NCBI GenBank assembly: GCA_035538515.1 | Contig: DATLKF010000024.1 | Location: forward strand, 6,597 to 70,596 | Reading direction: 5' to 3' | DNA length: 64,000 bases | Origin: Gemmatimonadales bacterium | GTDB taxonomy: Bacteria > Gemmatimonadota > Gemmatimonadetes > Gemmatimonadales > GWC2-71-9 | In this document: positions 13,972-30,779 of the stretch, piece after piece | Position numbering within the stretch: the stretch's first letter is position 1 | Layout of the letters: the number at the start of each line of letters is the position of its first letter | Made by a program: the position numbers and the translations under genes | Notes under the pieces: model-generated | What the model was told of the DNA's origin: nothing | Database searches by the model: none | The model's input: the letters and a program-made list of their open reading frames with translations, nothing else

Positions 13972-14032
13972 TCGTCAGTCATCGGTTATCAGTCGTCAGT
14001 TTGGCTGACGACTGACCACTGACGACTGACGA
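13972..14032. repeat. mirror array A: 4 x 7-nt units (TCNTCAG) + TTTGG + 4 x 7-nt inverted units (CTGACNA)
   Basis: Read directly: TCGTCAG TCATCGG TTATCAG TCGTCAG | TTTGG | CTGACGA CTGACCA CTGACGA CTGACGA. It is exactly symmetric about 14002. The outer and inner unit pairs are perfectly complementary. It lies between the TM2 gene and pntAA. Confidence 0.9.
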
Positions 14033-14061
14033 GCAGGCCACCAACAATCATTCGAGGGTTC

Positions 14062-15168
14062 ATGCGGATCGGGGTCCCGAAGGAGACCGCGCTCAACGAG
14101 CGTCGTGTGGCGCTCACGCCGGAGATCGCCGGCCGGCTGGTGAAGTCCGGACTGGCGGTCCTCGTGCAGCGCGGCGCGGGTGAGGCCGCCTCGTTCGGCG
14201 ACGCGGCGTACGGCGCGGCTGGGGCGACCGTCGTCGCGGCGGCCGCGGCCTTATTCGGGCAGAGCGACGTCGTCCTCAAGGTGCAGCTGCCTTCGAGCGA
14301 GGAGGTGCGCCTGTACCGCGAGGGGACGGCGTTGGTGGCCCTTTTCCAGCCCTCGGCCGAGCGGGAAATCGTCGCGCAGCTCGCCCGGCGCAAGGTGACG
14401 GCGTTCAGCCTCGCCTTGCTTCCCCGCATCACCCGCGCGCAGGCGATGGACGTGCTGTCGTCGCAGGCGACGGTGGCGGGATACAAGGCCGTGCTCCTCG
14501 CCGCCGCCCGCACCGGCCGGGTGTTCCCGATGCTCGTCACCGCGGCCGGCACGCTCACCCCGGCCCGCGTCCTGGTGCTGGGCGCCGGCGTGGCGGGGCT
14601 GCAGGCGATCGCGACGGCGCGCCGCTTGGGCGCGATCGTCTCCGCGTTCGACGTGCGACCCGCCGTGAAGGAGCAGGTGGAAAGCTTGGGCGCGCGGTTC
14701 CTCGAACTGCAAATCGGCGAGCAGGCCGAGGGCGCGGGCGGCTACGCCAAGCAGCTGTCGGACGAAACCCACCGACGCGAGCTCGAGTTCATCGCGCAGC
14801 ACGTGAAGGACGCCGACATCGTGATCACCACGGCGGCGATCCCCGGCAAGCGCGCGCCGATCCTGATCACGGCGGAGGCGGCCGGCGCCATGAGGCCCGG
14901 CTCCGTGATCGTCGACATGGCCATCGAGACCGGCGGCAACTGTGAGCTCACCCAGGCCGGGACCGAGGTCATCCACAACGGTGTGATCATCCTCGGCCCA
15001 CTCAACCTGCCGAGCACGGTTGCGGTGCACGCGAGCCAGATGTATGCGAGAAACGTCGCAAGTTTCATGTCACAAATCGTACGGGACGGCAAGCTCGTGG
15101 TCGATTTTGGCGACGAGATCGTTCGGGACACCTGCGTCACCCACGCCGGGGAGGTACGGAAGTCATGA
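14062..15168 (+). CDS. pntAA: NAD(P) transhydrogenase subunit alpha part 1
   Basis: MRIGVPKETALNERRVALTPE..., a Rossmann motif VLVLGAGVAGLQA, and conserved operon order. Confidence 0.93.
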   Translation: MRIGVPKETALNERRVALTPEIAGRLVKSGLAVLVQRGAGEAASFGDAAYGAAGATVVAAAAALFGQSDVVLKVQLPSSEEVRLYREGTALVALFQPSAEREIVAQLARRKVTAFSLALLPRITRAQAMDVLSSQATVAGYKAVLLAAARTGRVFPMLVTAAGTLTPARVLVLGAGVAGLQAIATARRLGAIVSAFDVRPAVKEQVESLGARFLELQIGEQAEGAGGYAKQLSDETHRRELEFIAQHVKDADIVITTAAIPGKRAPILITAEAAGAMRPGSVIVDMAIETGGNCELTQAGTEVIHNGVIILGPLNLPSTVAVHASQMYARNVASFMSQIVRDGKLVVDFGDEIVRDTCVTHAGEVRKS

Positions 15169-15443
15169 TCGACTACTGGTCCATGCTGTTCGTCTTCGTC
15201 TTGGCGACGTTCGTCGGGCTAGGGGTGATTCGCCGCGTCTCGCGCCTGCTCTACACGCCGCTCATGTCGCTCACCAACGCGATCTCGGCCATCGCCGTCG
15301 TCGGATCGCTCGTGGTCACGGGGGCCGATTATCCGGGGACGATCCGCATCCTGGGTGGCATTGCCCTGTTCGCGTCCATGACGAACATCGTCAGTGGGTT
15401 TCTGATCACGGACCGCATGCTGAAGATGTTCAAGAAGCAATGA
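15165..15443 (+). CDS. pntAB: NAD(P) transhydrogenase subunit alpha part 2 (membrane)
   Basis: A 92-aa hydrophobic protein with ATGA coupling at both ends. Confidence 0.9.
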   Translation: MIDYWSMLFVFVLATFVGLGVIRRVSRLLYTPLMSLTNAISAIAVVGSLVVTGADYPGTIRILGGIALFASMTNIVSGFLITDRMLKMFKKQ

Positions 15444-16849
15444 TCCAGGGGATCGCGCAGCTCGCCGCCATCGTGGCGACGGCGCTGTTTATCTTCGCGC
15501 TCCACTGGATGAACGCCCCGGAAACGGCGCGCCGCGGCGTCGTGGCCGGCGTGGTCGGCATGCTGGTGGCGGTACTCGCCACGTGGATCCAGCCCGAGAT
15601 CGTCCACCACGGCTGGATCGTGGTGGCGATCGTCGCCGGGTTCATCGTCGGCGTCCCGCTGTCGCGCGTGCCGCTTACCGCGGTGCCGCAGCGGACCGCG
15701 TTGTCGCACGCGTTCGGCGGCCTGGCGGCCGGCCTGGTGGGCACCGCGGAATATTTCCTGGGACTGCAGGAGCACCCTGCGGAGCTGACCGCGTTCCGGA
15801 TGAGCGCCATGGTCGCCGAGGTGATCCTCGGCTTCCTGACGTTCACGGGCAGCCTCATGGCCACCGGCAAGCTGCAGGAGGTGAAGTGGATCCCCCAGCG
15901 GCCGGTCACCTATCCCGGGCAAAACGTCCTCAACATCGGCGTCCTGGTCGCCGCCGTCGTGTTGGGCGTGCTCGTGGCGATGCATCCGGCCGAAGCGTGG
16001 TCGGCACGGGCCTTTCTCGCGATCGCCGGCCTCGCGCTGTTGTTCGGCGTGCTGCTCATCATTCCGATCGGTGGCGCCGACATGCCGACGGTCATCTCCA
16101 TCCTGAACTCCTACGCGGGGCTCTCGGCGGTGGCGATGGGCTTCGTGCTCGGCAACCGGCTGCTCGTCACGGCGGGTGCGCTCGATGGGTCGAGCGGCTT
16201 GATCCTCTCGATCATCATGTGCCGGGCGATGAATCGCTCGTTCACCAACGTGCTGTTCGGCGCGTTCGGTACGGTGAAAGCGGTGCAGGCGGGGGGGGAG
16301 CAGAAGGCGTGGAAGCAGGAGACCATCGAGGGCGCAGCGCAGCTGCTCGAGCAGGCGAGCCTCGTGGTGATCATTCCCGGCTACGGCATGGCCGTGGCCC
16401 AGGCGCAGCACAAGGTCCGTGAGCTGTACGACCAGCTGACCAAGCGCGGGATCACGGTCAAGTTCGCCATTCACCCCGTCGCTGGCCGCATGCCGGGTCA
16501 CATGAACGTATTGCTCGCCGAGGCGAATATTCCGTACACGGCGCTGGCCGAGATGGAGGAGATCAATCCTGACATGCCGCAGTGCGACGTGGCGCTCGTG
16601 ATCGGCGCCAACGACGTCGTAAACCCAGCGGCTCGGTACGCGAAGAACAGCCCGATCTATGGCATGCCGATCATCGACGCCGACAAGGCGCGGACGGTGC
16701 TCGCCATCAAGCGGAGCAAGAATCCCGGCTTCGCCGGGATCGACAACGAGCTGTACGTGCAGGACAACACTTGGATGCTGTTCGGCGACGCCAAGGCGGT
16801 CGTGGGCGACCTAGTGAAGCAGCTCGCGGGCGGCAGCGGCTTGCACTAG
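15440..16849 (+). CDS. pntB: NAD(P) transhydrogenase subunit beta
   Basis: This is the internal ATG (MIQGIAQLAAIV...) of ORF 15020..16849. The membrane domain is followed by an NADP(H) domain (IIPGYGMAVAQAQ, VIGANDVVNPAA). Confidence 0.93.
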   Translation: MIQGIAQLAAIVATALFIFALHWMNAPETARRGVVAGVVGMLVAVLATWIQPEIVHHGWIVVAIVAGFIVGVPLSRVPLTAVPQRTALSHAFGGLAAGLVGTAEYFLGLQEHPAELTAFRMSAMVAEVILGFLTFTGSLMATGKLQEVKWIPQRPVTYPGQNVLNIGVLVAAVVLGVLVAMHPAEAWSARAFLAIAGLALLFGVLLIIPIGGADMPTVISILNSYAGLSAVAMGFVLGNRLLVTAGALDGSSGLILSIIMCRAMNRSFTNVLFGAFGTVKAVQAGGEQKAWKQETIEGAAQLLEQASLVVIIPGYGMAVAQAQHKVRELYDQLTKRGITVKFAIHPVAGRMPGHMNVLLAEANIPYTALAEMEEINPDMPQCDVALVIGANDVVNPAARYAKNSPIYGMPIIDADKARTVLAIKRSKNPGFAGIDNELYVQDNTWMLFGDAKAVVGDLVKQLAGGSGLH

Positions 16850-17920
16850 GGCTCCGCTGTAAGCCCGGCCCATTCGCTCCATCGAGAACGCCTCCACAGC
16901 GCGTTGCCGCGCGGCCGTGCCGTGCGGCGCCGCCCGCTCGGGATGCGCGAGTACGTCGCGGACCGCGCGTGCGAACGCCGCCTGATCGTCTGGGGGCGTC
17001 AGGATCCCACCCTCTCCCACGACCTCGGGGAGCGCACCGGCCGCGACCGTGACGACTGGCCGGCCGCACGCCATTGCTTCAGCCACGGTCAGCCCGAACG
17101 TCTCGACCTCGCAAGCATGGACGAAGCAGGTCGCGGCGTTGTACGCCCCGGCGAGCTCCTTGGCGTCCAAGACGTCGAGCAGGCGGACTGCCATGCCCAG
17201 CCGCACGGCCCGCGCGCGGATTGCATCCGCGAGCGAGCCGCTCCCGCGGATCATGAGGAGAGGGCCGTCGGGCCCGAGGCGAGCGAGCGCGTCGAGCATC
17301 CATTCGTATCGCTTCTCCCACTCGAGCGCACCCACCGCGAGCAGAAACGGCCGGTCCCCCAGCCCGTGCTGGGCGCGAAAGGCGCGCCCCGCCTCGGGAT
17401 CGGGCCGGAAGATATCGACGTCCACCCCCTCGTAGATCGCGCAATGCGGGGGCCGTCCCATGAACGGAGCGGCCCGCAGGACGGCGCGCTCGCCCGAGTG
17501 GGTGCGGAAGATCGTGAGTCGGACCCGGCGATACGCCAGACGCATGATGGGATCGCGGGGCGGCAGCGCCCGGTTGACGTTGTACGAGTACACCAACGTG
17601 AAGCGTCCCCTGAGCGAGGCCAGGGCCCCCAGGCGGACGTCGCGCGGCATCTCCGCCACCAGCACGTCGCTGCGGAGCGTCTCCAACGCCCGGCCCAGGA
17701 TCCGCGCTTCGGCGAAGCCGGTGTCGTGGATGGGCAGCTCCTCCACCGGGAGCCCGGTGGTCGCGAATCCCGCTGTCACAGGGGGAACGGTCGAGAGCAG
17801 GTGCACGGCGTGCCCGTTCGCCGCCAGGCCGAGTGCGATGTGCGACAGACTGACGCCGGACCCACGCCACTCGCGCGCCGACGTCATCAAGGCGACGCGG
17901 AGCGGTCGCGCTGGCGGCAT
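16811..17920 (-). CDS. glycosyltransferase family 4 (GT-B)
   Basis: The C-terminal motif is ETFGLTVAEAMACGRPVV. The 3' end overlaps the convergent pntB by 39 nt. Confidence 0.85.
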   Translation of the reverse strand: MPPARPLRVALMTSAREWRGSGVSLSHIALGLAANGHAVHLLSTVPPVTAGFATTGLPVEELPIHDTGFAEARILGRALETLRSDVLVAEMPRDVRLGALASLRGRFTLVYSYNVNRALPPRDPIMRLAYRRVRLTIFRTHSGERAVLRAAPFMGRPPHCAIYEGVDVDIFRPDPEAGRAFRAQHGLGDRPFLLAVGALEWEKRYEWMLDALARLGPDGPLLMIRGSGSLADAIRARAVRLGMAVRLLDVLDAKELAGAYNAATCFVHACEVETFGLTVAEAMACGRPVVTVAAGALPEVVGEGGILTPPDDQAAFARAVRDVLAHPERAAPHGTAARQRAVEAFSMERMGRAYSGALVQAAAARELLH

Positions 17921-17921
17921 C

Positions 17922-18383
17922 CTACTCCTGAATGATCGTGATCTTGAAGCCGTCGGGGTCGGACAGGGCGAACGCCCAATCGCCCCACGGCGTCTCGGAC
18001 GGCTCGCGGTCGAGCGGCCACCCGGCCGCTTTCACCCGGGCGGCGAGCGCGGTGATGTCCTGGATCGTAGCCGCCCAGAGGCGGAAGCCCTCTCCCTTCG
18101 CGCGGTCCCGGCCCTTCGCGAAATCGTCCTGACTGAGCATGATGTCGCAAGCCCCGGCCTTCATCTGGATGCCGCGGACTTTCGCTCCCTCGGCCCAGCG
18201 CTCACCCACCGTGAAGCCCATGACGTCGCGATACCAGGCGATGCTCTTCTCCAGGTCGTTGACGGTGAACGACCCCGCGATGGAGCGCAGCCGCAGCGAC
18301 TCGGGCTGTTGCCGTTGGGGGCGGGGGACGCGAGGCGTCGGTGATTTCCGCGTGGAACGCCCAGCCGGTTTCTTGGTGGCCAT
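17922..18383 (-). CDS. VOC/glyoxalase family protein with basic N-terminal tail
   Basis: The glyoxalase-fold sequence is FTVNDLEKSIAWYRDVMGF...DPDGFKITI. Confidence 0.8.
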   Translation of the reverse strand: MATKKPAGRSTRKSPTPRVPRPQRQQPESLRLRSIAGSFTVNDLEKSIAWYRDVMGFTVGERWAEGAKVRGIQMKAGACDIMLSQDDFAKGRDRAKGEGFRLWAATIQDITALAARVKAAGWPLDREPSETPWGDWAFALSDPDGFKITIIQE

Positions 18384-18410
18384 CGTCCGTTTTTCCTCTC
18401 AGTGTCGGAC

Positions 18411-18436
18411 AGCGTGCGTCCCAAGCGTAGCGTCCC
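18411..18436. repeat. 13-nt tandem direct repeat in divergent VOC/osmC promoter region
   Basis: AGCGTGCGTCCCA (18411-18423) is followed by AGCGTAGCGTCCC (18424-18436), matching at 12 of 13 positions. Confidence 0.6.
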
Positions 18437-18486
18437 CGGCGCCCTTCCGCCAGATTTCCGCATCCCACTTCAGCGGAGTCGACACG

Positions 18487-18915
18487 ATGCCGACGAGTCA
18501 GGCGAGCGCGGTATGGGAAGGCAAGCTCAAGGACGGCCAGGGGAGCTTCAAGGCGGCGAGCGGCGCGTTCAGCGGACCGTTCTCGTTCGCAACCCGCTTC
18601 GAAGGCAAGAAGGGCACTAACCCCGAGGAGCTCATCGCGGCCGCCCACGCGGCCTGCTTCAGCATGGCCCTCTCCGCCGGGCTCGAGAAGGCCGGCAAGC
18701 CCGCGACGCGAGTCGAAACCAGCGCCGCCTGCACGCTCGAGACCGTTGCTGGCGCGCCCACCATCACCAAGATGGAGCTCAAAGTACGCGGCAAAGTGCC
18801 GGGCGTGGATCAAGCGGCGTTTCAAAAGGCCGCCGAAGAGGCGAAGCGCGGCTGCCCGGTGTCGAAAGCGCTCGCCGGCATCCCTCAGATCACCCTCGAC
18901 GCGAGACTGGAATAA
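18487..18915 (+). CDS. osmC: OsmC family peroxiredoxin
   Basis: This is the internal ATG (MPTSQASAVWEGKLKDGQG) of ORF 18139..18915. Two conserved Cys contexts are present: AAHAACF and KRGCPVSKAL. Confidence 0.88.
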   Translation: MPTSQASAVWEGKLKDGQGSFKAASGAFSGPFSFATRFEGKKGTNPEELIAAAHAACFSMALSAGLEKAGKPATRVETSAACTLETVAGAPTITKMELKVRGKVPGVDQAAFQKAAEEAKRGCPVSKALAGIPQITLDARLE

Positions 18916-18925
18916 GCCGGTCGCG

Positions 18926-19174
18926 ATGTGGATCGTGTACATGCTGCGCTGCCGCGACGGCTCGCTGTACACCGGCATCACCAATGACCTGCCGCGGCGG
19001 TTGACGCGACATGGGGCGGGAACCGCGAGCGCTTACACCCGCGCCCGCCGTCCGGTACGACTCGTCTACCAGGAGCGGCAGCCGGACCGTCCGGCCGCGT
19101 TGCGGCGCGAAGCCGCGCTGCGACGGCTGTCGCGGGCCGACAAGCTGGCGCTGCTGCGACGTCGCGCCAGATGA
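18926..19174 (+). CDS. GIY-YIG nuclease superfamily small protein (YhbQ/UPF0213-like)
   Basis: This is the internal ATG of ORF 18746..19174. The sequence VYMLRCRDGSLYTGITNDLPRRLTRH is present. It is coupled by ATGA to the next gene. Confidence 0.8.
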   Translation: MWIVYMLRCRDGSLYTGITNDLPRRLTRHGAGTASAYTRARRPVRLVYQERQPDRPAALRREAALRRLSRADKLALLRRRAR

Positions 19175-19878
19175 TGCCCGATCGGCGCGACGGCGTTGCG
19201 CTGGTCGCGGCCCTCCTGATCGCGGCGTTATGCGTGTGGGCCGGCGTGTGGCAGCTCGACCGACTGCACCAGCGTCGGGCGCGCAACGACCTCGTGCTTG
19301 CGCGGCGGGCACGGCCGCCCCTCGACGTCCGCGGGGGTCCGCTGTTGACCGCGGATTCGGCGCGCGACCGTCGGCTGCGGGCCAGAGGCCGGTACGATTA
19401 TGCGCACGAGCGCTTTTGGCGCCCGAGGAGCTACGAGGGAGTGCCGGGCGTCGCCCTGGTCACCCCGCTCCGGCTCGCTGACAGCGCCGCGGTCTTGGTC
19501 GATCGGGGGTGGGTGCCCTCTCCGGACGCCTATCACGTGGATCAGGACGCCTACCGGGAAGCGGACAGCGCCGACGTGGTGGGCCTGGGCATGAAGGCAC
19601 CACGGGGGCGGGGCGACGTCGACCCCGCCGCGCTCGCTGACTCGCTGCCCTACCCCCTGCTGCCCTTCGTGCTCCAGGAGTTGCCCACGACTCGTCCCCC
19701 CCCGTCAGGGATGATCCGCTGGCCGATACCGGAGATCTCCGACGGTCCCCACCTCTCCTATGCCATCCAGTGGTTCAGTTTCGCGGCGATCATCGTGGTG
19801 GGATCGCTGGTTTTGGTGCGGAAACGGGCTTCCGGACGCCCAAAACCCCCTCACCTGGCCGTTTCGGGGTACCATTAA
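19171..19878 (+). CDS. SURF1 family cytochrome oxidase assembly protein
   Basis: The N-terminal TM with WQLDRLHQRRARN, a C-terminal TM and LSYAIQWFSFA. Confidence 0.85.
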   Translation: MMPDRRDGVALVAALLIAALCVWAGVWQLDRLHQRRARNDLVLARRARPPLDVRGGPLLTADSARDRRLRARGRYDYAHERFWRPRSYEGVPGVALVTPLRLADSAAVLVDRGWVPSPDAYHVDQDAYREADSADVVGLGMKAPRGRGDVDPAALADSLPYPLLPFVLQELPTTRPPPSGMIRWPIPEISDGPHLSYAIQWFSFAAIIVVGSLVLVRKRASGRPKPPHLAVSGYH

Positions 19879-19910
19879 CGCCCGATTTTAGCGATATTTA
19901 GGTCCGTTTT

Positions 19911-19958
19911 CCCGCGGTGTGCTGTGCCGCCGCATCGCACTCTGCGGGCTTTTGTTGT
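19911..19958 (+). terminator. possible imperfect intrinsic terminator after SURF1 gene
   Basis: CCCGC (19911-19915) and GCGGG (19944-19948) enclose imperfect GC pairing. This is followed by CTTTTGTTGT. Confidence 0.35.
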
Positions 19959-19986
19959 CCCGCACCCCGAACAGGAGCCAAACCGG

Positions 19987-20619
19987 ATGCCTGCAGCCCT
20001 GCCCCTCAAGGAGCCCGTGAAGGTTGGTCAACTGCTCCGGCGCCGCTTGCGGGAGTTGAAGCGCACGCCGCGCGAGCTGGCGGAGGCGGTCAACGTGTCG
20101 GAAGACTACATGGCGGATCTGGTCGCGGGACGGCGGCGCCCCCCGGCGCCGGGACGGAGCGATCTGTACGCTCCGATGACCAAGTTTCTGCGGCTGCACC
20201 GCAACGACCTGCCGACCTGCGCGCGCGCCGAGCGGGCGACGGACGGGGCGTCGGGCCGGCGCCCGCACCCTGACGTGAGTCGCCAGGTGCTCGAGCTGTG
20301 CGTTCCCGAGCGGCAGCGGGCGCTGCAGCGGCGGCTGGGGCGGTCCGAGGGCGCCGAGCTCGAGCATGTGATCGTGAGCCGCCTGCTCCAGGTGGCGCAG
20401 GGCTTCGTGAACCGCAAGCTGGAAGACGAAGTCGGGCTGCGGATGGCCGCGACGCGAGACGGCTGCACCTATCTCGAGGCCCGGATGCGGCTGCTCGAGT
20501 TTCTCGACGCGGATGCGACGTCGCTCACGCCGCGGGACTGCGAGGAATTTCTGCGGCCGCGGATCACGAGCTGGGACATCGATCTCGAGACCCGCGCCAT
20601 GCGGATCGTCCTCAAGTAA
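19987..20619 (+). CDS. hypothetical protein with N-terminal XRE-like helix-turn-helix
   Basis: This is the internal ATG of ORF 19924..20619. The segment VGQLLRRRLRELKRTPRELAEAVNVSEDYMADLVAG resembles an HTH_XRE. I do not recognise the rest. Confidence 0.6.
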   Translation: MPAALPLKEPVKVGQLLRRRLRELKRTPRELAEAVNVSEDYMADLVAGRRRPPAPGRSDLYAPMTKFLRLHRNDLPTCARAERATDGASGRRPHPDVSRQVLELCVPERQRALQRRLGRSEGAELEHVIVSRLLQVAQGFVNRKLEDEVGLRMAATRDGCTYLEARMRLLEFLDADATSLTPRDCEEFLRPRITSWDIDLETRAMRIVLK

Positions 20620-20650
20620 GACAAACGGCGCCGCCCGATGGGCGGCGCCG
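20617..20650 (-). terminator. intrinsic terminator of cspA (11-bp GC stem), probably bidirectional
   Basis: CGGCGCCGCCC (20626-20636), loop GAT, GGGCGGCGCCG (20640-20650). On the minus strand it is followed by TTTGTCTTA. On the plus strand it lies 7 nt after the HTH gene stop. Confidence 0.7.
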
Positions 20651-20678
20651 ATCGCTTTGGTCCCTGCCGTAGTGCCGG

Positions 20679-20888
20679 TTAGAGCTTCACGACATTCTGC
20701 GCCGCGGGACCCTTCTGGCCCTGCACGACGTCGAACTCGACCCGCTCGCCTTCCGCGAGCGACTTGAATCCCTGCGCCTGGATCGCGGTGTGGTGCACGA
20801 AGCAATCCTTCTCACCGTTCTCGGGCGTAATGAACCCGAACCCCTTCGCGTCGTTGAACCACTTCACGATTCCGGTAATGCGTGCCAT
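20679..20888 (-). CDS. cspA: cold-shock protein (CSD)
   Basis: The sequence is [36 protein letters not shown]1 (KGFGFI) and an RNP2-like motif are present. AGGAG lies upstream. Confidence 0.95.
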
Positions 20889-20905
20889 CTGCTGTGACTC
20901 CTGAC

Positions 20906-21103
20906 TTAATGGTGTTCGCGACGTCGTGCGGACTTCACCTTGCGGCGTGCCGCTGCCTTGTCTTTCCGTCGCCGTAGAGCGCCGGGGCTCTCGTAAAAGC
21001 GCTTCCGCTTCATGTCCTGAAACAGTCCGGCCTTGGTGATCTGACGCCGAAACTTTTTCAGCACGTACTCCAGGCGGTCGCCATCGCTCACGGTCACTTC
21101 CAT
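20906..21103 (-). CDS. rpsU: 30S ribosomal protein S21
   Basis: This is the internal ATG ([27 protein letters not shown]...RRRK...) of ORF 20906..21259. The product is 65 aa, the typical S21 length. Confidence 0.9.
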
Positions 21104-21205
21104 GATCGCTCCGTGTGAAAGCCCCCCCAAGCCCCAGAAACGAAACGACCCGGGCGGTAGCCCAGGTCCTATCGACAGTCTCTGGTTCGTTATCGCTCGC
21201 GGAAG

Positions 21206-21234
21206 ATCATCGCTTGGTGGCCCGGATTTGTCAA
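21206..21234 (-). promoter_or_regulatory. candidate sigma70-type promoter for rpsU-cspA
   Basis: On the minus strand: TTGACA (21234-21229), a 17-nt spacer, then GATGAT (21211-21206). This is a pattern match only, and the promoter consensus for this lineage is unknown to me. Confidence 0.3.
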
Positions 21235-21253
21235 GTATCAGATCAGAGAAGTA

Positions 21254-21308
21254 CGTCAAGCAAAGGCGTCACGAAGAGACGTCGACATTGTTTCGCGACG
21301 TCGTTGAC
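21254..21308. repeat. array C1: CGTCAAG/CGTCACG/CGTCGAC units at 13-nt spacing plus inverted CGCGACG
   Basis: Units start at 21254, 21267 and 21280. The inverted unit is at 21294-21300. The array contains AGGCGTCACGAAGAGACGTC (21264-21283), which is 19/20 identical to 21454-21473 in array C2. Confidence 0.75.
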
Positions 21309-21332
21309 TTAGCTAGGCGACTCGACTAGGTT
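21304..21332 (+). promoter_or_regulatory. candidate sigma70-type promoter for the DEAD-box helicase (long leader)
   Basis: TTGACT (21304-21309), a 17-nt spacer, then TAGGTT (21327-21332). This would give a leader of about 230 nt. Pattern match only. Confidence 0.3.
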
Positions 21333-21342
21333 ACGGCCACGA

Positions 21343-21433
21343 GTTTCGAGAACCGCGAGCTGGCATCCTTCCGAAGGACGGTCCCGCTCAGGAGCGGGCC
21401 TCACATCTGCAGGCTCATCCGTAGGTTCGAAAC
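21343..21433 (+). promoter_or_regulatory. predicted structured RNA segment in the cold-shock intergenic region
   Basis: A closing stem, GTTTCGA(GA)ACC at 21343-21354 paired with GGTTCGAAAC at 21424-21433, encloses two hairpins. These are TCCTT-CCG-AAGGA (21366-21378) and CCCGCT-CAGG-AGCGGG (21383-21398). Paired by eye, not folded computationally. Confidence 0.3.
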
Positions 21434-21443
21434 AACGATAAAC

Positions 21444-21557
21444 CGTCGCGAATAGGCGTCACGAAAAGACGTCACGGGACGGCGTCACGGACCACCGTAT
21501 TACGGTTCTCCGTGACGGTCTTCCGTGACGTCTTTCTCGTGACGTCGTTCCGCGACG
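21444..21557. repeat. mirror array C2: 4 x 13-nt units (CGTC[G/A]CG core) + palindromic centre ACCGTA-T-TACGGT + 4 inverted units
   Basis: Left cores start at 21444, 21457, 21470 and 21483. Right cores (CGTGACG/CGCGACG) start at 21511, 21524, 21538 and 21551. The array is symmetric about 21500. It ends 5 nt before GAGGAG (21563-21568) and the ATG at 21572. Confidence 0.9.
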
Positions 21558-21571
21558 TAGTGAGGAGTAGT

Positions 21572-22814: not shown

Positions 22815-24134
<1,320 letters not shown>

Positions 24135-24140
24135 GAGGCC

Positions 24141-24240
24141 GACGGTAGAAGACGGTAGAGGTCGGTAGACGTCGGCGAAGTCGGTAAACGCTGGGCGACC
24201 CGTTACCGACTGTTACCGACCCGTACCGACCTCTACCGTC
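24141..24240. repeat. mirror array B: 5 x ~10-nt units (G[A/T]CGGTAGAN) + 11-nt spacer + 4 inverted units (NNNTACCG[A/T]C)
   Basis: GACGGTAGAA GACGGTAGAG GTCGGTAGAC GTCGGCGAA GTCGGTAAAC | GCTGGGCGACC | CGTTACCGAC TGTTACCGAC CCGTACCGAC CTCTACCGTC. It fills 100 of the 126 bp between the divergent gltA and the PRT-like gene. Confidence 0.9.
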
Positions 24241-24260
24241 CTTACGTATCTTCTCAGACC

Positions 24261-24923
24261 ATGACTCCCGCCGCCCCGTCCAAGCCCGCCGCGCTCTACC
24301 CGACGCGTGGGGCGGCTGGCGCCCTGCTGGGCCAGCAGCTCGCGGCCCGGGGCTATCTCGGGTGCCTGCTGCTCGGCATTACGCCCGAGGGCGTGGAGAT
24401 CGCGGCCAACGCCGCCAAGGCGACGGGCGCCCCGTTCGATGTCCTCGTGGCGGCGTTCATCAAGCTGGGCTCCAACCTCGCCCCGATCGGCGCGATCGCC
24501 GAGTCCGCCCCCTCGGAGATGGACCCCGATTTCCAGCCGGGCGGCTCACTGCTCGACAAGCTCGCGAGCGCCATCGACGAGTCGCGAGCGCGGGTGAGCC
24601 AGGACCTGATCCTGTACCGCACCCAGCGCCCGGTGAAGCCGCTCAAGGGCCGGATCGCGGTGATCATCGATGGCCAGGTGGTCTACCCGTGGAAGGTGCT
24701 GGCGGCGGCCAAGGTCGCCGTGCAGCAGGGGGCCAAACAAGCGGTGATCGCGACGCCGGTGGCGACCCAGGTGGCAGCCGATCGGATTACGGCGCGGGGC
24801 TACGAGTTCCTGTGTCCCACGATCGTGATGGAGCCCCAAGGGCACCCATCACCGTACGGTGACATGGCCGGGGATACGCCGGAGCGGCTGCGCAGCATTA
24901 TGATCGCGCACCAAGCGGCGTGA
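24261..24923 (+). CDS. phosphoribosyltransferase-like protein (COG1926 layout) with degenerate PRPP motif
   Basis: The layout matches putative PRTases. However, the usual VDDGxATG loop reads IIDGQVVYPW and the PRGG region reads TPEG. Confidence 0.55.
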   Translation: MTPAAPSKPAALYPTRGAAGALLGQQLAARGYLGCLLLGITPEGVEIAANAAKATGAPFDVLVAAFIKLGSNLAPIGAIAESAPSEMDPDFQPGGSLLDKLASAIDESRARVSQDLILYRTQRPVKPLKGRIAVIIDGQVVYPWKVLAAAKVAVQQGAKQAVIATPVATQVAADRITARGYEFLCPTIVMEPQGHPSPYGDMAGDTPERLRSIMIAHQAA

Positions 24924-24950
24924 AGAGGGAGAAGCGTTGCCGGGAACGCC

Positions 24951-26819
24951 CTACTCCAGTTCGACCATCCCCCGCTCCAACCACCGATGCTCACCCGCCA
25001 GCGTCTCTTGCGCCACCCGGTACGCCTTCGTGTCCGCATTGCGCCACAGCTCCGCGAACTTGACCTTGATGCGCGCCCGGGCCTGGCGACAGAACAGATC
25101 CGCGACCTCGACGGCGCGCCGGCCGGCGGCGGGATCGGCGCGGAGCAGCCACTGCGCGCGCGCGCACGTGGCGGCCATGGCGAACAGCTCGGCGCCCACA
25201 TCCACCAGGCGGAACAGCACCGCCTGGCGGTACTCGAGCTTGGGCCCGAACCGCATCATGGCATGGAACACACTGCGCGCGAGGCGCCGCGCCGTGCGGT
25301 CCACGTAGCGCAAGTGGCGCGCTAGGGCTCCGAAGCGGCCGTATTTCGGCCAGAAGCTCCAGCCTAGCCACCGCGACGGGTACCACCAACCGTAGAACAG
25401 TCCGGCCCGCACCAATCCTCGCAGGCGAGCGCTCAGGGTCTTGCCTGGCATGACCACGTCGCCCGCGACCTGCAGGTGTTTGTCGACCGCTTCGCGGGCG
25501 ATGAACAGGTGCATGATTTCGCTCGAGCCCTCGAAGATCAAATTGATCCGGAAGTCGCGCATGATGCGCTCGACCGGCACCGGCTTCTCGCCGCGCGCGC
25601 GCAGCGAGTCGGCGGTCTCATAGCCGCGCCCGCCGCGGATCTGCACCGTGTCGTCGATGATGCGCCAGCCGGCCTCGGAGTTGTAGAGCTTCGCGATCGC
25701 CGCCTCGAGCCGGATGTCGTACCCGCCCCGGTCGGCCATCGCGCCGCACAGCTCCGCCACGGCTTCCATGGCGAAGGTGTTCGCGGCCATGGTCCCGATT
25801 TTCTGGGCGACCGCGTCGTGCTTCCCGATCGGCCGCCCCCACTGCACGCGCTCGCTCGCCCACTGCCGCGAGATCTCGAGACAGCGCTTGCCCGCGGCGA
25901 CCGACGAGATCGGCAGCGTCAGCCGCCCGGTGTTCAGGGTCGTGAGCGCGAGCTTCAAGCCCTTGCCCTCGCCCCACAGCACGTTCTCCTTGGGGACGCG
26001 AACGTTTCGGAACGAAATCACGCCGTTGTAGATCGCCTTGAGGCCCATGAAATGGCAGCGGTGCTCGACCTTCACACCCGGCCACGCCATCTCCACGATG
26101 AACGCGGTGATCTGCCGCTTCTCGCGCCCGCCCACGACCTTGGACGGCGTGCGGGCCATGACGACCATCAGCTCCGCCTTCGTCCCGTTCGTGCACCACA
26201 GCTTTTCACCGTTCAGGATCCAGGCCTCCCCGTCATCGCTCGGGACGGCGGTGGTCTCCATCGCGGCAGGGTCGGATCCCACGCCCGGCTCCGTCAGCGC
26301 GAACGCCGAGACGGCGCCCTTTGCGAGACGGGGGAAATACCGCTTCTTTTGCGTGTCCGAGCCGAACATCTTGAGCGGCTGGGGCACACCGATCGACTGA
26401 TGGGCCGAGAGAAGGGCCGTGACCGAGCCATCGATCGATGACACGAGCTCGATCGCCTTCATGTACGAGAGCTGGGACAGGCCCAGCCCGCCGTACTCGC
26501 GTGGAATCTTGATGCCGAACGCGCCCAGGTCGCGGAGCCCCTGGATCACGTCGTCCGGGATCTCCCCCTCGCGGTCGATCTTGTCCGAGTCCACCCGTTC
26601 GCGCAGGAACCGCTCCAGCCGCTCAAGAAACGGGCGCGCGCGCGCCACCTCTTCGGGATCTTGCTCGGGGTAGGGGTGGATGAGGTCGAGGCGGAACGTG
26701 CCGAGGAACAGGTCGCGCACGAAGCTCGGCGCGGCCCACTCCTGCTCGCGAGCCGCTTCGGCGACTTCGCGGGCTTCGGCTGCGGTGACTTTGCGCTCGG
26801 GGGGGGCGGTCGTAGCCAT
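24951..26819 (-). CDS. long-form acyl-CoA dehydrogenase (FadE-like with C-terminal extension)
   Basis: [19 protein letters not shown] and a roughly 200-aa C-terminal helical extension. Confidence 0.9.
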
Positions 26820-26900
26820 GGCTCCAATCTAGCTGGTATGCCTTGACATCGGGACCGTCGCGGGGAAATTCGCCTCGCTCCGCTAGAGAGGAGAACGCTG

Positions 26901-28205
26901 ATGCGCCTCGCTTCCGTGCTACTCATCACACTCGCGCTTCCCGCGACCCTCCGGGCGCAGGGGTCCCGGGCGCCGGCGCCGCCGCCGGGGGCGCCAGTCC
27001 TCATCAAGGCGGGCCGGTTGATCGACGGCCGCGCCGACGGGGCGCTGTTGGGAGCGGCCATTCTCATCGACGGCGAGCGCATTAAGGCCGTCGGCCCGCT
27101 GGCGCAAGTGCAGGCGCAAGCGAAGAACGCTCGCGTGATCGACCTGTCACAGATGACGGTGCTCCCCGGGTTCATCGACGCGCATACCCATCTCTTACTG
27201 CAAGGCGACCCCACGGCGCAGTCGTACAACGAGCAGCTGCTGTACGAGTCGACGGCGTATCGCGCGATCCTCGCCGCCCGCAACGCGCGCATCGCGCTCG
27301 AGCACGGATTCACCACGATCCGAGACCTGGAAACCGAGGGCGCGATGTACGCCGACGTGGACGTCAAGCGGGCGGTGGACCGTGGTGAGATCGCTGGGCC
27401 GCGCATCTTCGCCTCCACCCGCGCCATGGCGCCCACCGGCATGTACCCGATCGTGTCCGACAATTGGGAGCTCGAGTTGCCGCACGGGGTGCAGCCGGTG
27501 GACGGCGTGGAGGGGGCGCGCCTCGCGGTGCGCCAGCAGGTGGCGCACGGCGCCGACTGGATCAAGTACTACTCGGACCGTCGCTACTACTTCACGCCGG
27601 ACTCGGTGCTGCATAGCTGGGTGAACTTCACGGACGACGAGGCGCGCGCGATCGTCGAGGAAGCGCACCGCCTTGGGCGCTCGGTGGCCGCCCACGCGAT
27701 CGGAGCGGACGGGATCGCGGCGGCGCTCCGCGCCGGCGTCAACACCATCGAGCACGGTGACGGCATGACGGACTCCCTGCTCGACGTCATGGCCTCGCGG
27801 GGGGTGTACTGGGTGCCCACGGTGACGGTGGCGCAGTACGTCGCTGGACCGCGCGGCGGCCCTTGGGTCCCGATGGTGGAGCATCAGCGTCGCGCGTTCG
27901 GCCGGGCGCTCAAGAAGGGCGTCCGGATCGCGTTAGGAACCGACGTAGGCGGGTTTCCCTGGACCGAGATCAACGAGGCGAAGGAGTTCGCGTACTACGT
28001 GCAGTACGGCATGACCGCGATGCAGGCGATCAAGGCGGGTACCTCGGTGGCCGCCGACCTCCTCGCGCAGCGGGACCTGGGCGTCGTGGCGCCTGGCGCC
28101 TACGCCGACCTGGTGGCGGTAGCGGGGGACCCCACGAAAGACATCGCGGAACTGGAGCGGGTGCGGTTCGTTATGAAGGGCGGTGTCACTTATGTTTCGC
28201 CATAG
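26901..28205 (+). CDS. secreted metal-dependent amidohydrolase (paralog of 565..1896)
   Basis: It has a signal peptide, LPGFIDAHTHL, AAHAIG, IEHGDG and LGTDVGG. GAGAGGAG lies upstream. Confidence 0.9.
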   Translation: MRLASVLLITLALPATLRAQGSRAPAPPPGAPVLIKAGRLIDGRADGALLGAAILIDGERIKAVGPLAQVQAQAKNARVIDLSQMTVLPGFIDAHTHLLLQGDPTAQSYNEQLLYESTAYRAILAARNARIALEHGFTTIRDLETEGAMYADVDVKRAVDRGEIAGPRIFASTRAMAPTGMYPIVSDNWELELPHGVQPVDGVEGARLAVRQQVAHGADWIKYYSDRRYYFTPDSVLHSWVNFTDDEARAIVEEAHRLGRSVAAHAIGADGIAAALRAGVNTIEHGDGMTDSLLDVMASRGVYWVPTVTVAQYVAGPRGGPWVPMVEHQRRAFGRALKKGVRIALGTDVGGFPWTEINEAKEFAYYVQYGMTAMQAIKAGTSVAADLLAQRDLGVVAPGAYADLVAVAGDPTKDIAELERVRFVMKGGVTYVSP

Positions 28206-30682
28206 TGTGGCGCGCGCTCGGAACTAGCTTCGCGTTGTTGATCGGCGCCGCCGGTTGGGCCGCCGGACAGTTCGCGCCGGCTGGCACCGGCGGCGTCGCG
28301 GCGTTGGCAGGAGCCCTGCAGCAGCTCGGCGCGAACAAGCGCATCCTGATGATCGGGGCCCACCCCGACGACGAGTACTCCGACCTCGTCGCCCTGTTCG
28401 CGCGGGGCATGGGCGCGCAGGTGGCCTATCTGTCGCTCAGCCGGGGCGAAGGGGGGCAGAACCTGATCGGCCCCGAGCTCGGCCCAGAGCTCGGGATCAT
28501 CCGCTCCGAGGAGCTGCTCGCGGCCCGGCGTATCGACGGCGCTCGTCAGTTCTTCGCCCGCGCGTACGATTTCGGCTACTCGAAGACGATCGACGAAGCG
28601 CTGCGCTTCTGGCCGCGCGATTCGCTGCTGCACGATGTGATCGACGTAATACGCCGTTTCCGCCCGCAGATCATCGTCGCCGTATTCTCCGGCACGCCGC
28701 GCGACGGTCACGGCCAGCATCAGGTGTCGGGCGTCCTCGCGCGTCAGGCCTTCGAGATGCTGCGCGACTCGAGCTGGGGACCCGTCAAGCTGTACCGCTC
28801 GCTGTACTTCGACACGGCATCCGCCACGCTGCGGCTCGATGCCGGCCGGCTCGATCCGGTGGAAGGCCGCTCCTATCATCAGATCGCGATGGAGGGCCGC
28901 AGCCGGCACCGCTCGCAGGACCAGGGACAGCTGGAGCGGCCAGGACCGAGCATCGCGCGGCTGGCGTTCATCGAATGGCGCGATCGCGGGCGCGGCGCGC
29001 GCGACGGAGATGAGGGGGGCGTCTTCGCGGGCGTCGACACACTGATTCCGGGCAAGACGCGCTACGCGTCCCTGATCGATTCGGCGCGCGCGCTGCTCAA
29101 CCCTCCTCGGCCCGATGCGATCGTTCCCGTGCTCGTCGGGGCGCTCCGTGAGCTGGGCGACGCCGATTCAGCGCAGCGAGCGACGCTGTCGGAGACGCTC
29201 GCCGCGTCGGCCGGCGTCGCGATCGACGGTGTCGCCGACGACGACATCGTGATTCCGGGCGAGCGGCTCCAGGTCGAAGCCACGGTCTGGAATGCCGGGG
29301 GTACGACCGTCACGCTGGACGAGATCGGCGTGACCGCGCCGGCGGGCTGGAAGGTCGAGCGCCTGGATCCCACCGCCTCACCCGTGACCCCCGGGACCGT
29401 CGCGACTCGCCGCTTCGCGGTCACCGTTGGTCCCGACGCCCCGCGCTCGCAGCCGTATTTCCTGCGCCGGCCCCTCGCCGGCGCGTTGTACGATTGGAGC
29501 GGCACTCCTCCCTCATGGCGCGGCTTGCCGTTCGAGCCGCCACCGCTCGAGATAACGGCGCGGCTCACGATCGCCGGGCAAGCGGTGACGCTGTCGCGTG
29601 AGGTTGTGTACCGCTATCGCGACGAGGCGATCGGCGAGGTGCGGCGCCCGCTGTTCGTGACCCAGCCGTTCGACGTGACGGTGACCCCGGAGTTGGTCGT
29701 GTGGCCGCTGGAGGGCGAAGGGGCGGGTCCCCGCCACTTCACCGTAACGGTGACCAATCGTACGCGTGGCCCCGCTGCTGCGCAGGTGGTGCTCACGCCG
29801 CCGCCCGGGTGGGCCCCGGTCTCCCCCGAGTCGCTCTCGTTCCAACGCGAGGACGAATCAAAGAGCCTGAGCGTCGCCGTGACGCTCCCGAAGGGAGCCA
29901 GGCCCGGGGTGTATCACCTCGGCGCCGCCGCGCTCTCCGGTGGCGGCCGCAGCGCCGGCGCGCTTGCGATCATCGACTACCCGCACATCCGGCCGCGGGC
30001 GGTCGCCCACGCCTCCTCGAGCGAGATCCGCGCGGCGCGCATCGGGTTGCCCACGTTGGCCCGCGTCGGCTACGTGCGGGGCGCGTCCGATCGCGTGCCC
30101 GAGGCCCTCCAGGCGGTCGGCGTGCCCCTCGAGCTACTCGGCCCCGATACGCTCGCTCGCGGCGATCTCATGAGGTACGACGCCATCGTGATCGGCAGCC
30201 GGGCGTATGAGACCGAGCCGGCGCTGGTGGCGAACAACGGGCGCCTGCTCGACTACGTGCGGGCGGGCGGCCTCGTGATCGTCCAATATCAGCAATACCC
30301 GTTCGTGAGCGGTGGCTTCGCCCCCTACCGGCTCTCGATCGCCCGCCCGCACGATCGCGTGACCGACGAGACCGCTCCCGTGACGGCGCTCGACGCCGCG
30401 AGTCCAGTCCTCCACGTCCCAAACGAAATCGGGCCCGACGACTGGCGAGGGTGGGTGCAGGAGCGCGGGCTCTACTTCGCCCACCAATGGGACTCGGCGT
30501 ACACGCCGCTGCTCGAGATGCACGATCCTGGCGATCCGGCCCTCCAGGGAGGCTTGCTCGTCGCCGCCGTGGGGAAGGGGACGTACGTCTACACGGGATT
30601 GAGCTTCTTCCGACAGCTGCCCGCGGGTGTCTCAGGCGCCTATCGGCTGTTTGCGAACCTGCTGGCGCTGGGGAAGAAATGA
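28205..30682 (+). CDS. large PIG-L/LmbE family deacetylase with C-terminal glutamine-amidotransferase-like domain
   Basis: ORF 27863..30682. A GTG at 28205 overlaps the preceding TAG by 1 nt. It has a signal-like N-terminus, IGAHPDDE and SRGEGGQN. The C-terminal segment YDAIVIGSRAYE...GGLVIVQYQQ is present. Confidence 0.8.
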   Translation: MWRALGTSFALLIGAAGWAAGQFAPAGTGGVAALAGALQQLGANKRILMIGAHPDDEYSDLVALFARGMGAQVAYLSLSRGEGGQNLIGPELGPELGIIRSEELLAARRIDGARQFFARAYDFGYSKTIDEALRFWPRDSLLHDVIDVIRRFRPQIIVAVFSGTPRDGHGQHQVSGVLARQAFEMLRDSSWGPVKLYRSLYFDTASATLRLDAGRLDPVEGRSYHQIAMEGRSRHRSQDQGQLERPGPSIARLAFIEWRDRGRGARDGDEGGVFAGVDTLIPGKTRYASLIDSARALLNPPRPDAIVPVLVGALRELGDADSAQRATLSETLAASAGVAIDGVADDDIVIPGERLQVEATVWNAGGTTVTLDEIGVTAPAGWKVERLDPTASPVTPGTVATRRFAVTVGPDAPRSQPYFLRRPLAGALYDWSGTPPSWRGLPFEPPPLEITARLTIAGQAVTLSREVVYRYRDEAIGEVRRPLFVTQPFDVTVTPELVVWPLEGEGAGPRHFTVTVTNRTRGPAAAQVVLTPPPGWAPVSPESLSFQREDESKSLSVAVTLPKGARPGVYHLGAAALSGGGRSAGALAIIDYPHIRPRAVAHASSSEIRAARIGLPTLARVGYVRGASDRVPEALQAVGVPLELLGPDTLARGDLMRYDAIVIGSRAYETEPALVANNGRLLDYVRAGGLVIVQYQQYPFVSGGFAPYRLSIARPHDRVTDETAPVTALDAASPVLHVPNEIGPDDWRGWVQERGLYFAHQWDSAYTPLLEMHDPGDPALQGGLLVAAVGKGTYVYTGLSFFRQLPAGVSGAYRLFANLLALGKK

Positions 30683-30779
30683 AACGCGGAAGTGCGGAAT
30701 GCGGAACAGCAAGGCAGCCCTCGCGGAGCAGATTGCCTTTCACGGCTGTTCCGCGTTCCGACTTTCGCGTTCCGCGTTT
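30682..30779. repeat. mirror array D: 3 x GCGGAA units / 4 x TTCCGC-type units around an internal hairpin; probable bidirectional terminator
   Basis: AAACGCGGAA (30682-30691) pairs with TTCCGCGTTT (30770-30779). GCGGAACAGC (30701-30710) pairs with GCTGTTCCGC (30745-30754). AAGGCA (30711-30716) pairs with TGCCTT (30734-30739). GCGGAA units start at 30686, 30694 and 30701. Inverted units are at 30749, 30756, 30764 and 30770. The right arm lies inside the last 12 codons of the symporter. Confidence 0.85.

Follow-up and report, generated by a model that had tools for sequence, protein, structure and literature searches.

Mirrored tandem-repeat arrays with junction-specific units between housekeeping genes of a Gemmatimonadales genome and its relatives

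The closest described precedent for the elements reported here comes from Xanthomonas. In X. campestris and X. axonopodis, arrays of the heptamer GGGAATC occur as convergent inverted pairs at 70-75 loci per genome; they are capable of forming stem-loops, are mostly transcribed and have been read as G-quadruplex DNA, and the type of array (single or inverted pair) is usually kept at orthologous sites across species, with variation in length and sequence (Rehm et al., 2015, PMC4692102). Long simple sequence repeats (SSRs) are also known from cyanobacteria, as the short tandemly repeated repetitive (STRR) heptamers, and from Beggiatoaceae, where 170 sets of TAACTGA direct repeats include one inverted case (PMC4679880). 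Another kind of intergenic hairpin, comprising repetitive extragenic palindromic sequences (REP), bacterial interspersed mosaic elements (BIME) and REP doublets forming hairpins (REPIN), consists of a stem-loop of 20-40 base pairs (bp) with an unpaired GTAG or CGTC tag, belongs to one family at high copy number and is often linked to a REP-associated tyrosine transposase (RAYT) (PMC3733652). As to how such structures change, template switching between imperfect inverted-repeat arms is summarised in PMC13100816 as a process that homogenises and expands them (Ripley, 1982; Lovett, 2004, 2017). Here we describe five mirrored arrays in a stretch of 64,000 nucleotides (nt) from the metagenome-assembled genome of a soil bacterium of the Gemmatimonadales (contig DATLKF010000024.1, 69% GC), hereafter termed the window. 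Each array spans 55-115 nt between housekeeping genes and consists of a short motif in tandem followed by its reverse complement in tandem. The arrays are real, non-random and evolutionarily structured.

All five arrays, named A, C1, C2, B and D in their order along the window, were located where a first-pass annotation had placed them and with the periods and unit counts it gave, as confirmed by reading the sequence. In A, C2, B and D, both arms were called as tandem arrays by Tandem Repeats Finder (TRF). An inverted-repeat search paired the two arms at 80-88% complementarity in A, C2 and B, and those of D were paired by an ungapped inverted-repeat scan and by our array detector, which takes adjacent TRF arrays separated by a gap of at most 60 nt whose consensus units are mutually reverse-complementary. 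An ungapped anti-diagonal scan of all 64 kb gave its three highest ranks to C2, A and B, and it lists D too. The annotation had named comparison with shuffled sequence as a test of its idea; here the detector found 4 mirrored arrays in the window, compared with a mean of 0.02 and a maximum of 1 in 100 dinucleotide-preserving shuffles, and 21 in 257 kb of loci from the clade of the window, compared with 0 in 10 shuffled sets. Every intergenic tandem array of period 6-15 with at least 3.5 copies called by TRF in the window is mirrored, and the unmirrored arrays of comparable period that were checked (5612, 13151 and 46084) lie inside open reading frames (ORFs). An assembly artefact is ruled out: over 21 kb the sequence agrees at 100% identity with an independent Logan assembly of this organism, and orthologous arrays were found in many independent metagenomes. 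Sliding-window minimum free energy was no help in locating the arrays, since any 130-nt window folds at about -55 ± 9 kcal/mol at 69% GC. Two other strong inverted repeats of the window are found inside ORFs, at 38288-38342 (19-nt arms, 95% complementarity) and 53436-53498 (30-nt arms, 80%), and their arms are not tandem-repetitive.

The architecture that the annotation had described, n direct units, a centre and about n inverted units, with different units per junction, is borne out in each case; C2 is assigned to the plus strand and the other four to neither strand. Array A (13972-14032) is composed of 4+4 heptamers of period 7 (TCGTCAG/CTGACGA) around a 5-nt centre, its left arm reading TCGTCAG, TCATCGG, TTATCAG and TCGTCAG, its centre TTTGG and its right arm CTGACGA, CTGACCA, CTGACGA and CTGACGA. 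It is separated by 3 nt from the stop codon of the TM2-domain gene before it and by 30 nt from the ATG of pntA after it, the two genes being in tandem, and its hairpin has a folding energy of about -42 kcal/mol on either strand. Array B (24141-24240), flanked by the divergent genes for citrate synthase (minus strand) and a 220-amino-acid (220-aa) phosphoribosyltransferase-like protein (plus strand), has 5+4 decamers of period 10 (GACGGTAGAA/GTCGGTAGAC), whose variants (GACGGTAGAA to GTCGGTAAAC) are ordered as mirror images across the arms; the arms are 30 nt apart in ungapped comparison, and internal loops are present. Array D (30682-30779) has 3+4 heptamers of period 7-8 (GCGGAAx/xTTCCGC) around a centre of about 40 nt. 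It begins at the stop codon of a PIG-L-family gene on the plus strand and has T-rich tracts on both outer sides, and its right arm (30740-30779) supplies the final ~13 codons of an SSF symporter ORF that converges from the minus strand. C1 and C2 both sit in the 468-nt spacer between rpsU-csp (minus strand) and a DEAD-box helicase gene (plus strand). C1 (21254-21308) is a smaller array of about 3 units followed by 1-2 units, of period 13 and of the CGTCACG family, and C2 (21444-21557) has four 13-nt units on each side of an apical CCGTA-TTA-CGG hairpin (CCGTA..TACGG), with a CGTCACG core and purine-rich spacer in the units of the left arm and CGTGACG and a pyrimidine spacer in those of the right arm. 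C2 is placed in the 5' untranslated region (UTR) of the helicase gene, has a fold of -81 kcal/mol and is followed, 5 nt beyond the array, by the Shine-Dalgarno sequence GAGGAG. Tandem, divergent and convergent gene pairs thus all host arrays, and we agree with the annotation that a terminator role alone is insufficient.

For each of A, B, C and D, the words that make up the unit are restricted to the family's own arrays, and their counts in the rest of the 64 kb equal the shuffle expectation. Four unrelated unit families are present within 17 kb, with no G tracts, and all that they have in common by eye is CG-rich tetramers (GACG, GCGG), unremarkable at 69% GC. The units had been called unrelated between loci. 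They are indeed near locus-specific, but C1, C2 and the arrays that follow the helicase gene in relatives share one family (CGTCACG, period 13), and one unit recurs in two unrelated genomes. This unit, CACGAAGGA (9 nt), makes up a mirrored array in each of the loci L006 (4-105) and L059 (16218-16292), two sites that are not orthologous, in genomes labelled Syntrophobacteraceae and Sulfotelmatobacter, respectively. A related CACAGAGGA array was seen in L003 (Pyrinomonadaceae), a locus that holds five arrays in 21 kb (3655-3739, 8509-8580, 11384-11524, 13052-13137 and 18286-18338); two of its arrays share the unit GCGCAAAG, and that at 11384-11524 is built of AACGCTTGA-type units in alternating orientation, which is more complex than direct-then-inverted. 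Because CACGAAGGA arrays recur in L006 and L059, some unit families are shared across genomes, and together with the shared C family and the shared GCGCAAAG this forms a continuum towards a one-unit-per-genome state.

Relatives were represented by up to 13 syntenic Gemmatimonadales loci per junction, of which L002 came from a genome scan, L082 and L083 from a metagenome scan, L162-L173 from homologues of the 220-aa gene and L174-L177 from homologues of the TM2 gene. At orthologous junctions the period and the architecture are kept, copy number varies and the array is sometimes lost. Architecture held constant under changing sequence, the other test that the annotation had set, is therefore upheld in the relatives. 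At site B a hairpin is found in 8 of 11 relatives, a half array in 2 and abutting flanks in 1. The counts here are 5+4 in the window, about 5+4 in L162, 4+5 in L002 (unit GGCGGTGNAG), 3+3 in both L172 and L167, 2+2 in L165, 2+4 in L169 and 1+3 in L166 (unit CCCCGTC); L164 and L082 have only right-arm remnants, and L171 has no array, its conserved flanks abutting without duplication. Among close relatives the B unit drifts from GACGGTAGA through GGCGGTGGA to GACGGGG. The 220-aa protein was considered as an autoregulator binding B and set aside, as Pfam gave no hit for it, JGI names its homologues phosphoribosyltransferase and the unit drifts among relatives. The 220-aa gene has 639 homologues, many of them on contigs that extend to site B. 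In relatives, arrays are also found after the 220-aa gene, at its junction with an acyl-CoA dehydrogenase gene, beginning a few nt from the stop codon. Between these two genes a small 23S_rRNA_IVP (PF05635) gene is present in two relatives only, at 10635-11060 of L164 and 10737-11165 of L171.

Site D carries GCGGAAx arrays after the PIG-L stop codon in 7 of 9 lineages (window, L162, L164, L165, L167, L171 and L172), irrespective of what comes next, the symporter in convergent orientation or an ABC-transporter binding protein in the same direction, and the variant of each lineage (GCGGAAC, GCGGAAT or GCGGATT) is uniform and identical on both arms. A different heptamer, GCGTGGT, occupies the site in L169 and L170, and L166 has no array there. 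An earlier idea, that a lone GAATGCG "seed" had given rise to this site in L162, L164 and L172, proved wrong, as arrays are present there and the gene caller had extended an ORF through them. Such false extensions arise because the array units hold no stop codon in any frame, and ABC-transporter binding-protein genes thereby gain 24-37 spurious N-terminal residues (L162 16396-16485, L164 16969-17104 and L172 16476-16591). At site A the GTCAG family was found in 2 of 5 genomes (the window and, as 3+3, L167); L174 and L175 have no array and L177 has a different hairpin. Site C1 is filled by large arrays in L162, L172, L082 and L166 and by a different, CGTAGC-like unit in L165, and has no array in L164 and L167. 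C2 was found in 6 of the 12 genomes compared, the window included (the relatives being L162, L164, L167, L172 and L083), and its orthologues keep period 13 and the same apical hairpin with a core of CGTCGAG or CGTCTAG instead of CGTCACG. In the relatives without C2 (L082, L165, L166, L169 and L171), the same place holds a longer variant of the helicase leader and a unique ~17-bp non-repeat hairpin. Finally, units of the C family form big arrays right past the helicase stop codon in L162, L172 and L082. At this convergent helicase/citrate synthase junction the window has 19 nt only, L171 has an array of another unit (GGCGGTAAG) and the remaining relatives have short plain hairpins, so that each relative carries some hairpin; other Gemmatimonadota have plain short hairpins after citrate synthase.

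Change at these sites is concerted. Among the 29 predicted pairs of B, comparison of the window with L002 gave 11 that changed on both sides, 1 on one side and 0 broken, with the identical substitution in all units of both arms. For C2, the 39 pairs compared between the window and L083 include 4 double-sided and 5 one-sided changes, and again none is broken. Mean inter-arm complementarity (0.895) exceeds within-arm periodic identity (0.807), being the higher of the two in 24 of 34 arrays. The arrays are dispensable at any single site, because they are lost, halved or replaced in close relatives. Their turnover is slow on strain timescales and becomes visible at ~10-25% protein divergence.

Distant loci from a citrate synthase scan served as a control for the distribution of arrays among phyla. 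Acidobacteriota yielded 9 arrays in 355 kb and Actinomycetota 0 in 515 kb (binomial p = 3e-4 for this contrast), and we counted 1 array in 182 kb of Myxococcota/Desulfobacterota-like loci and 3 in 170 kb of other loci (1 in Binatia and 2 in Ardenticatenaceae). Mixed helicase-paralogue loci held 1 array in 0.77 Mb. The arrays of other phyla are likewise intergenic and include all three gene-pair classes. The propensity to carry arrays is lineage-specific, extending over the clade of the window, Acidobacteriota and some other soil lineages, and not Actinomycetota.

Do these arrays work as RNA or as DNA? Their folds of -42 to -81 kcal/mol are stable on either strand. Strand-specific selection on RNA was sought through G·U versus A·C counts, and no asymmetry was found either in a first set of 11 arrays (35 versus 32 G·U pairs) or in 14 arrays of unambiguous sense, with 39 G·U pairs in the sense and 37 in the antisense orientation and summed fold energies of -866 and -850 kcal/mol, respectively. 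A, B and C2 have no U tract, and a scan with a terminator consensus flagged no array whole, only a 6-bp sub-hairpin within C1, and did flag ordinary terminators. Two of the latter, at 7158-7185 (plus strand; TTTTTG) and 20650-20626 (minus strand; T tract), have an 11-13-bp GC-rich stem and a short loop and lie between convergent genes and after csp. Because ordinary intrinsic terminators are present, the organism is not dependent on the long arrays for termination. The T-rich flanks of D resemble those of these two terminators.

Position relative to the neighbouring promoters divides the arrays further, B, C1 and C2 lying 5' of genes and D after a stop codon. The left flank of B, AAGATAA (24125-24131; TTATCTT on the minus strand), is the putative -10 box of citrate synthase, conserved in 11 of 11 relatives and complementary to the right flank; AGGA stands 9 nt ahead of the citrate synthase GTG start at 24095, with a short UTR after TATCTT on that strand. 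The right flank, TATCTT (24247-24252, plus strand), lies 8 nt ahead of the ATG at 24261, and TATCTT or TATTTT is found 7-9 nt ahead of the ATG of the 220-aa gene in 11 of 11 relatives. No Shine-Dalgarno sequence of this gene was found in the window or the 11 relatives, and judging by these motifs its mRNA would be leaderless with TATCTT as the -10 box. On the other side of the helicase/citrate synthase pair, a helicase promoter is predicted at 21304-21332 (plus strand; TTGACT, 17 nt, TAGGTT). Our promoter scan passed over it, its -10 hexamer matching at 3 of 6 positions, and TTGAC(T/G)-17-TAG(G/C)TT is kept at a fixed distance upstream of the helicase leader in the window, L082, L162 and L172, as is a TAGCTT -10 box in L002 and L083. 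The same scan gave a promoter-like site for rpsU-csp at 21206-21234 (minus strand; TTGACA, 17 nt, GATGAT) with 10 of 12 matches, and the TTTGTCAA motif there is conserved among relatives. C1 lies between the outward-facing -35 boxes of these divergent promoters, its last unit overlapping that of the helicase. B and C1 are thus probably untranscribed, because, if the promoter readings hold, both are upstream of the neighbouring transcription starts and in no mRNA. Transcribed sites, for their part, seem to want a hairpin, because relatives without C2 have a substitute hairpin, site D keeps an array after replacement of its unit and the helicase/citrate synthase junction always has a hairpin.

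The architecture, the excess over chance, the positional inheritance, the concerted double-sided change, the turnover and loss of copies and the lineage bias are observations, and the mutational mechanism, the promoter positions given above and the RNA roles given below are deductions. With slightly better than even confidence, we read the arrays as locus-anchored "palindromic minisatellites" that come from a DNA-level process and serve as RNA stem-loops where they are transcribed. A DNA-level common denominator is suggested because symmetric unit-wise growth and homogenisation are shared by all arrays, transcribed or not. A long imperfect hairpin-forming sequence would be built in place from a short local motif: slipped-strand mispairing would add or remove units within an arm, and intrastrand or sister-strand template switching, the quasi-palindrome mechanism of Ripley and Lovett, would copy one arm from the other, expanding the second arm and keeping the arms complementary. 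A substitution could in this way spread to all units of both arms, giving concerted evolution. The process would run in lineages prone to it, and arrays would accumulate only where extra DNA is tolerated, that is after stop codons, between back-to-back promoters and in the gap between a 5' leader and the ribosome-binding site. Once transcribed, as A, D, C2 and the arrays after the helicase and 220-aa genes may be, they would form a very stable stem-loop with ordinary hairpin roles; A and D could act as a 3'-end terminator or exonuclease barrier and C2 as a 5'-UTR stem just ahead of an unpaired Shine-Dalgarno sequence, and B and C1 would be by-products without an RNA role.

Several points weigh against this explanation. 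Unit-wide double-sided changes and an inter-arm complementarity at least as high as within-arm identity fit the products of quasi-palindrome template switching, and the same pattern would also be expected from selection for pairing alone. The persistence of B and D in most relatives could reflect selection rather than tolerance. No single mutational event was caught, and no array differs in unit number between the members of four contig pairs that are 99.4-99.95% identical, in which metagenome consensus may mask minor variants. The promoter positions that make B and C1 "untranscribed" come from conserved motifs, not from mapping. The clade loci were picked around known arrays, which biases their densities upward, and three more 20-kb loci of the clade held 0 mirrored arrays.

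Selection for RNA structure might also account for everything, the arrays being terminators, barriers to 3' exonucleases, RNase III sites or 5'-UTR stabilisers and the repeats simply the easiest mutational route to a longer stem. The very stable folds and the double-sided changes that preserve pairing would follow from it directly, as would arrays starting 0-5 nt past stop codons, the T tracts that flank D, a site D that retains an array despite replacement of the unit, and a C2 that ends 5 nt ahead of the Shine-Dalgarno sequence and gives way to another hairpin in relatives without it. We nevertheless think it unlikely that all arrays are explained in this manner: B and C1 lie between outward-facing promoter boxes and probably in no mRNA, G·U pairs are not in excess on the sense strand (39 versus 37), A, B and C2 lack the U tract that the ordinary short terminators of this genome possess, and close relatives with intact genes lose or halve their arrays. 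An action as DNA, with cruciforms or single-stranded DNA hairpins buffering supercoiling between divergent or convergent units or pausing replication, suits the arrays between divergent promoters (B, C1) and at convergent ends (D, and helicase/citrate synthase in relatives), the equal quality of the hairpins on both strands and the centre of A, which is just 5 nt. A long unpaired centre strongly disfavours cruciform extrusion, however, and such centres are found in D (~40 nt) and several orthologues, while the arms of B are separated by 30 nt and interrupted by internal loops. With an arm complementarity of only 80-90%, a misfit with tandem-gene and 5'-UTR sites, and relatives that do without arrays, we regard a DNA-structural function as quite improbable. 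Of the annotation's proposal of a long hairpin or cruciform, the very stable hairpin folds stand and the cruciform is unsupported where the central spacer is long; the perfect pairing that the annotation claimed for the outermost and innermost units holds only roughly.

Short repeats, direct and inverted and without spacing, are bound by ribbon-helix-helix repressors (omega/MetJ/ParG type), and by analogy the unspaced heptamers and decamers described here, direct then inverted, recall the heptad operators of the omega repressor. The arrays might then be operator- or iteron-like, with a protein of its own for each unit family, and both the location of B and C1 between divergent promoters and the palindrome GACGTC within the core of the C unit would agree. 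This is more doubtful still, as a regulator would be required for each of at least four unrelated unit families in 17 kb, no regulator gene adjoins any array, the periods of 7, 8, 9, 10 and 13 share no helical phase and the units drift in concert among close relatives; moreover, many arrays lie past stop codons or between convergent genes, and relatives with the same genes are missing whole arrays. Least probable of all, and contradicted by our results, is a dispersed mobile repeat (REP/BIME, a miniature inverted-repeat transposable element (MITE) or a relic of either) or an artefact of assembly or chance. The arrays are intergenic, palindromic and variably present among relatives, and the tetranucleotides GTAG and CGTC in the units of B and of A and C lend a superficial likeness to tagged REPs (PMC3733652). 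Against this, unit words outside their own arrays are at chance level in the window, the arrays have no shared ends and stay anchored at orthologous junctions, no target-site duplication is seen where the flanks abut in L171, independent assemblies are identical and the excess over shuffles is very large.

Beyond the palindromic minisatellites as we read them, one may speculate that mirrored arrays are a distinct class of bacterial non-coding element, spread over several phyla and defined by structure rather than sequence. They would be products of some dedicated activity, or of replication or repair working in a way peculiar to the lineage, and in Gemmatimonadota, Acidobacteriota and other soil lineages they would be selected as generic gene-boundary "punctuation" that insulates transcription units as DNA and as RNA alike. 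We hold this to be a tentative and rather unlikely extension. If there is selection, two abundant and poorly studied soil phyla would possess, in these arrays, a class of regulatory punctuation not tied to sequence. If the palindromic-minisatellite reading is true, they would constitute a natural record of hairpin-templated repeat expansion in bacteria, with one junction traceable through dozens of relatives, and the de novo origin of long hairpins, terminators and palindromes, as well as the interplay of slippage and template switching, would become testable. In practical terms, gene callers extend ORFs through the arrays, which puts false N-terminal residues on the binding-protein genes of L162, L164 and L172 and a false C-terminal extension on the SSF symporter of the window, and terminator predictors overlook them. 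The arrays also point to lineages that may treat DNA hairpins differently, with regard, for instance, to the status of SbcCD, ExoI or ExoVII.

The spacer that holds C1 and C2 has further features. Upstream of the DEAD-box helicase gene and of C2 lies a leader of ~80 nt (21349-21428, plus strand) that starts with GAACCGCGAGCTGGCATCCTTCCGAAGGACGGTCCCGCTCAGGAGCGGG and is nearly invariant, the first ~55 nt hardly changing among relatives with proteins of only 77-91% identity. It was compared in the window, L002, L082, L083, L162, L164-L167, L169, L171 and L172, and its terminal hairpin comes in two variants, short and long. The leader has no Rfam match, and covariation gives no support because the sequence hardly varies; a search of Rfam (gathering threshold and E ≤ 5) returned nothing real for the region, only chance microRNA-like matches to the C2 hairpin. 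We consider the leader a candidate for cis-regulation of this cold-shock-type DEAD-box helicase, either as an RNA or as a site for protein binding. On the opposite strand, the 5' UTR of the rpsU-csp operon contains, downstream of the promoter-like site at 21234-21206, a terminator-like hairpin with a T-rich tail (GACCTGGGCTACCGCCCGGGTC GTTTCGTTTC) at 21147-21168 (minus strand), which is conserved in relatives and could be an attenuator or autoregulatory leader. The genes csp, rpsU and the DEAD-box helicase form a divergent gene cluster of cold-shock type.

We now return to the known systems. REP/BIME, MITEs, CRISPR arrays, contingency-locus SSRs and operator or iteron arrays do not fit as classes, because in each a defining feature that was tested is lacking here. 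Like REP and BIME, the mirrored arrays are intergenic hairpin repeats, mostly downstream of genes and variable in presence, and REP and BIME too have been proposed as terminators or mRNA stabilisers; the difference is that here no dispersed family is seen in the 64 kb examined, no terminal tag is present and elements of 55-115 nt are built of units of 7-13 nt. A transposase was found neither among the 10 flanking proteins scanned nor in the precomputed Pfam marks of the region. MITEs have terminal inverted repeats, a target-site duplication and multiple copies, whereas no duplication is seen in L171 and no other copies were found. The annotation had set REP, BIME and MITE elements aside, rightly on this evidence, and likewise CRISPR, whose 24-48-nt repeats alternate with unique spacers, in contrast to contiguous units of 7-13 nt followed by inverted copies. 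In the contingency loci of phase variation the number of units differs between close strains, and here no such difference is seen in the four near-identical contig pairs.

In high-GC bacteria, the intrinsic terminators between convergent genes include long hairpins that have no U tract. Arrays A and D resemble intrinsic terminators in starting a few nt from stop codons, as do the arrays of relatives at two junctions, helicase/citrate synthase and 220-aa-gene/acyl-CoA-dehydrogenase. The arrays differ in having stems of 25-50 bp with periodic internal loops and tandem units, and B and C1 are upstream of promoters. With the SSRs of cyanobacteria and Beggiatoaceae they share intergenic tandem heptamers near start and stop codons and an enrichment in certain lineages; those SSRs, however, are essentially direct arrays of one genome-wide unit, whereas the arrays described here as a rule have an inverted partner and a unit particular to the junction. 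Quasi-palindrome correction, in which likewise one arm templates the other, would explain the mirrored order of variants and the double-sided changes. It has been described for unique-sequence inverted repeats and single events, while here it would have acted on tandem-unit arrays at many loci. To our knowledge, slippage and template switching that together build mirrored tandem arrays at many loci of one lineage have no earlier description.

That said, the annotation's view that no described element class has this architecture holds only in part, given the GGGAATC inverted pairs of Xanthomonas (PMC4692102), and what stands of it is that the precedent uses one unit genome-wide. A full-text literature search returned no description of mirrored arrays with junction-specific units. 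As in Xanthomonas, the elements are intergenic tandem arrays with a nearby reverse-complement array, and by period the fit is direct for A and D (7-8), while B (10) and C (13) are longer than units of 6-9 nt. The Xanthomonas unit is G-rich and the same throughout the genome; here units are specific to the junction, have periods of 7-13 and are not prone to form G-quadruplexes, and, unlike in Xanthomonas, each family is inherited at its own junction and changes in concert on both arms. Taken together, the mirrored arrays belong with inverted long-SSR pairs and hairpin-forming intergenic repeats, likely with ordinary roles where they are transcribed, and it is their mode of origin that is unusual.

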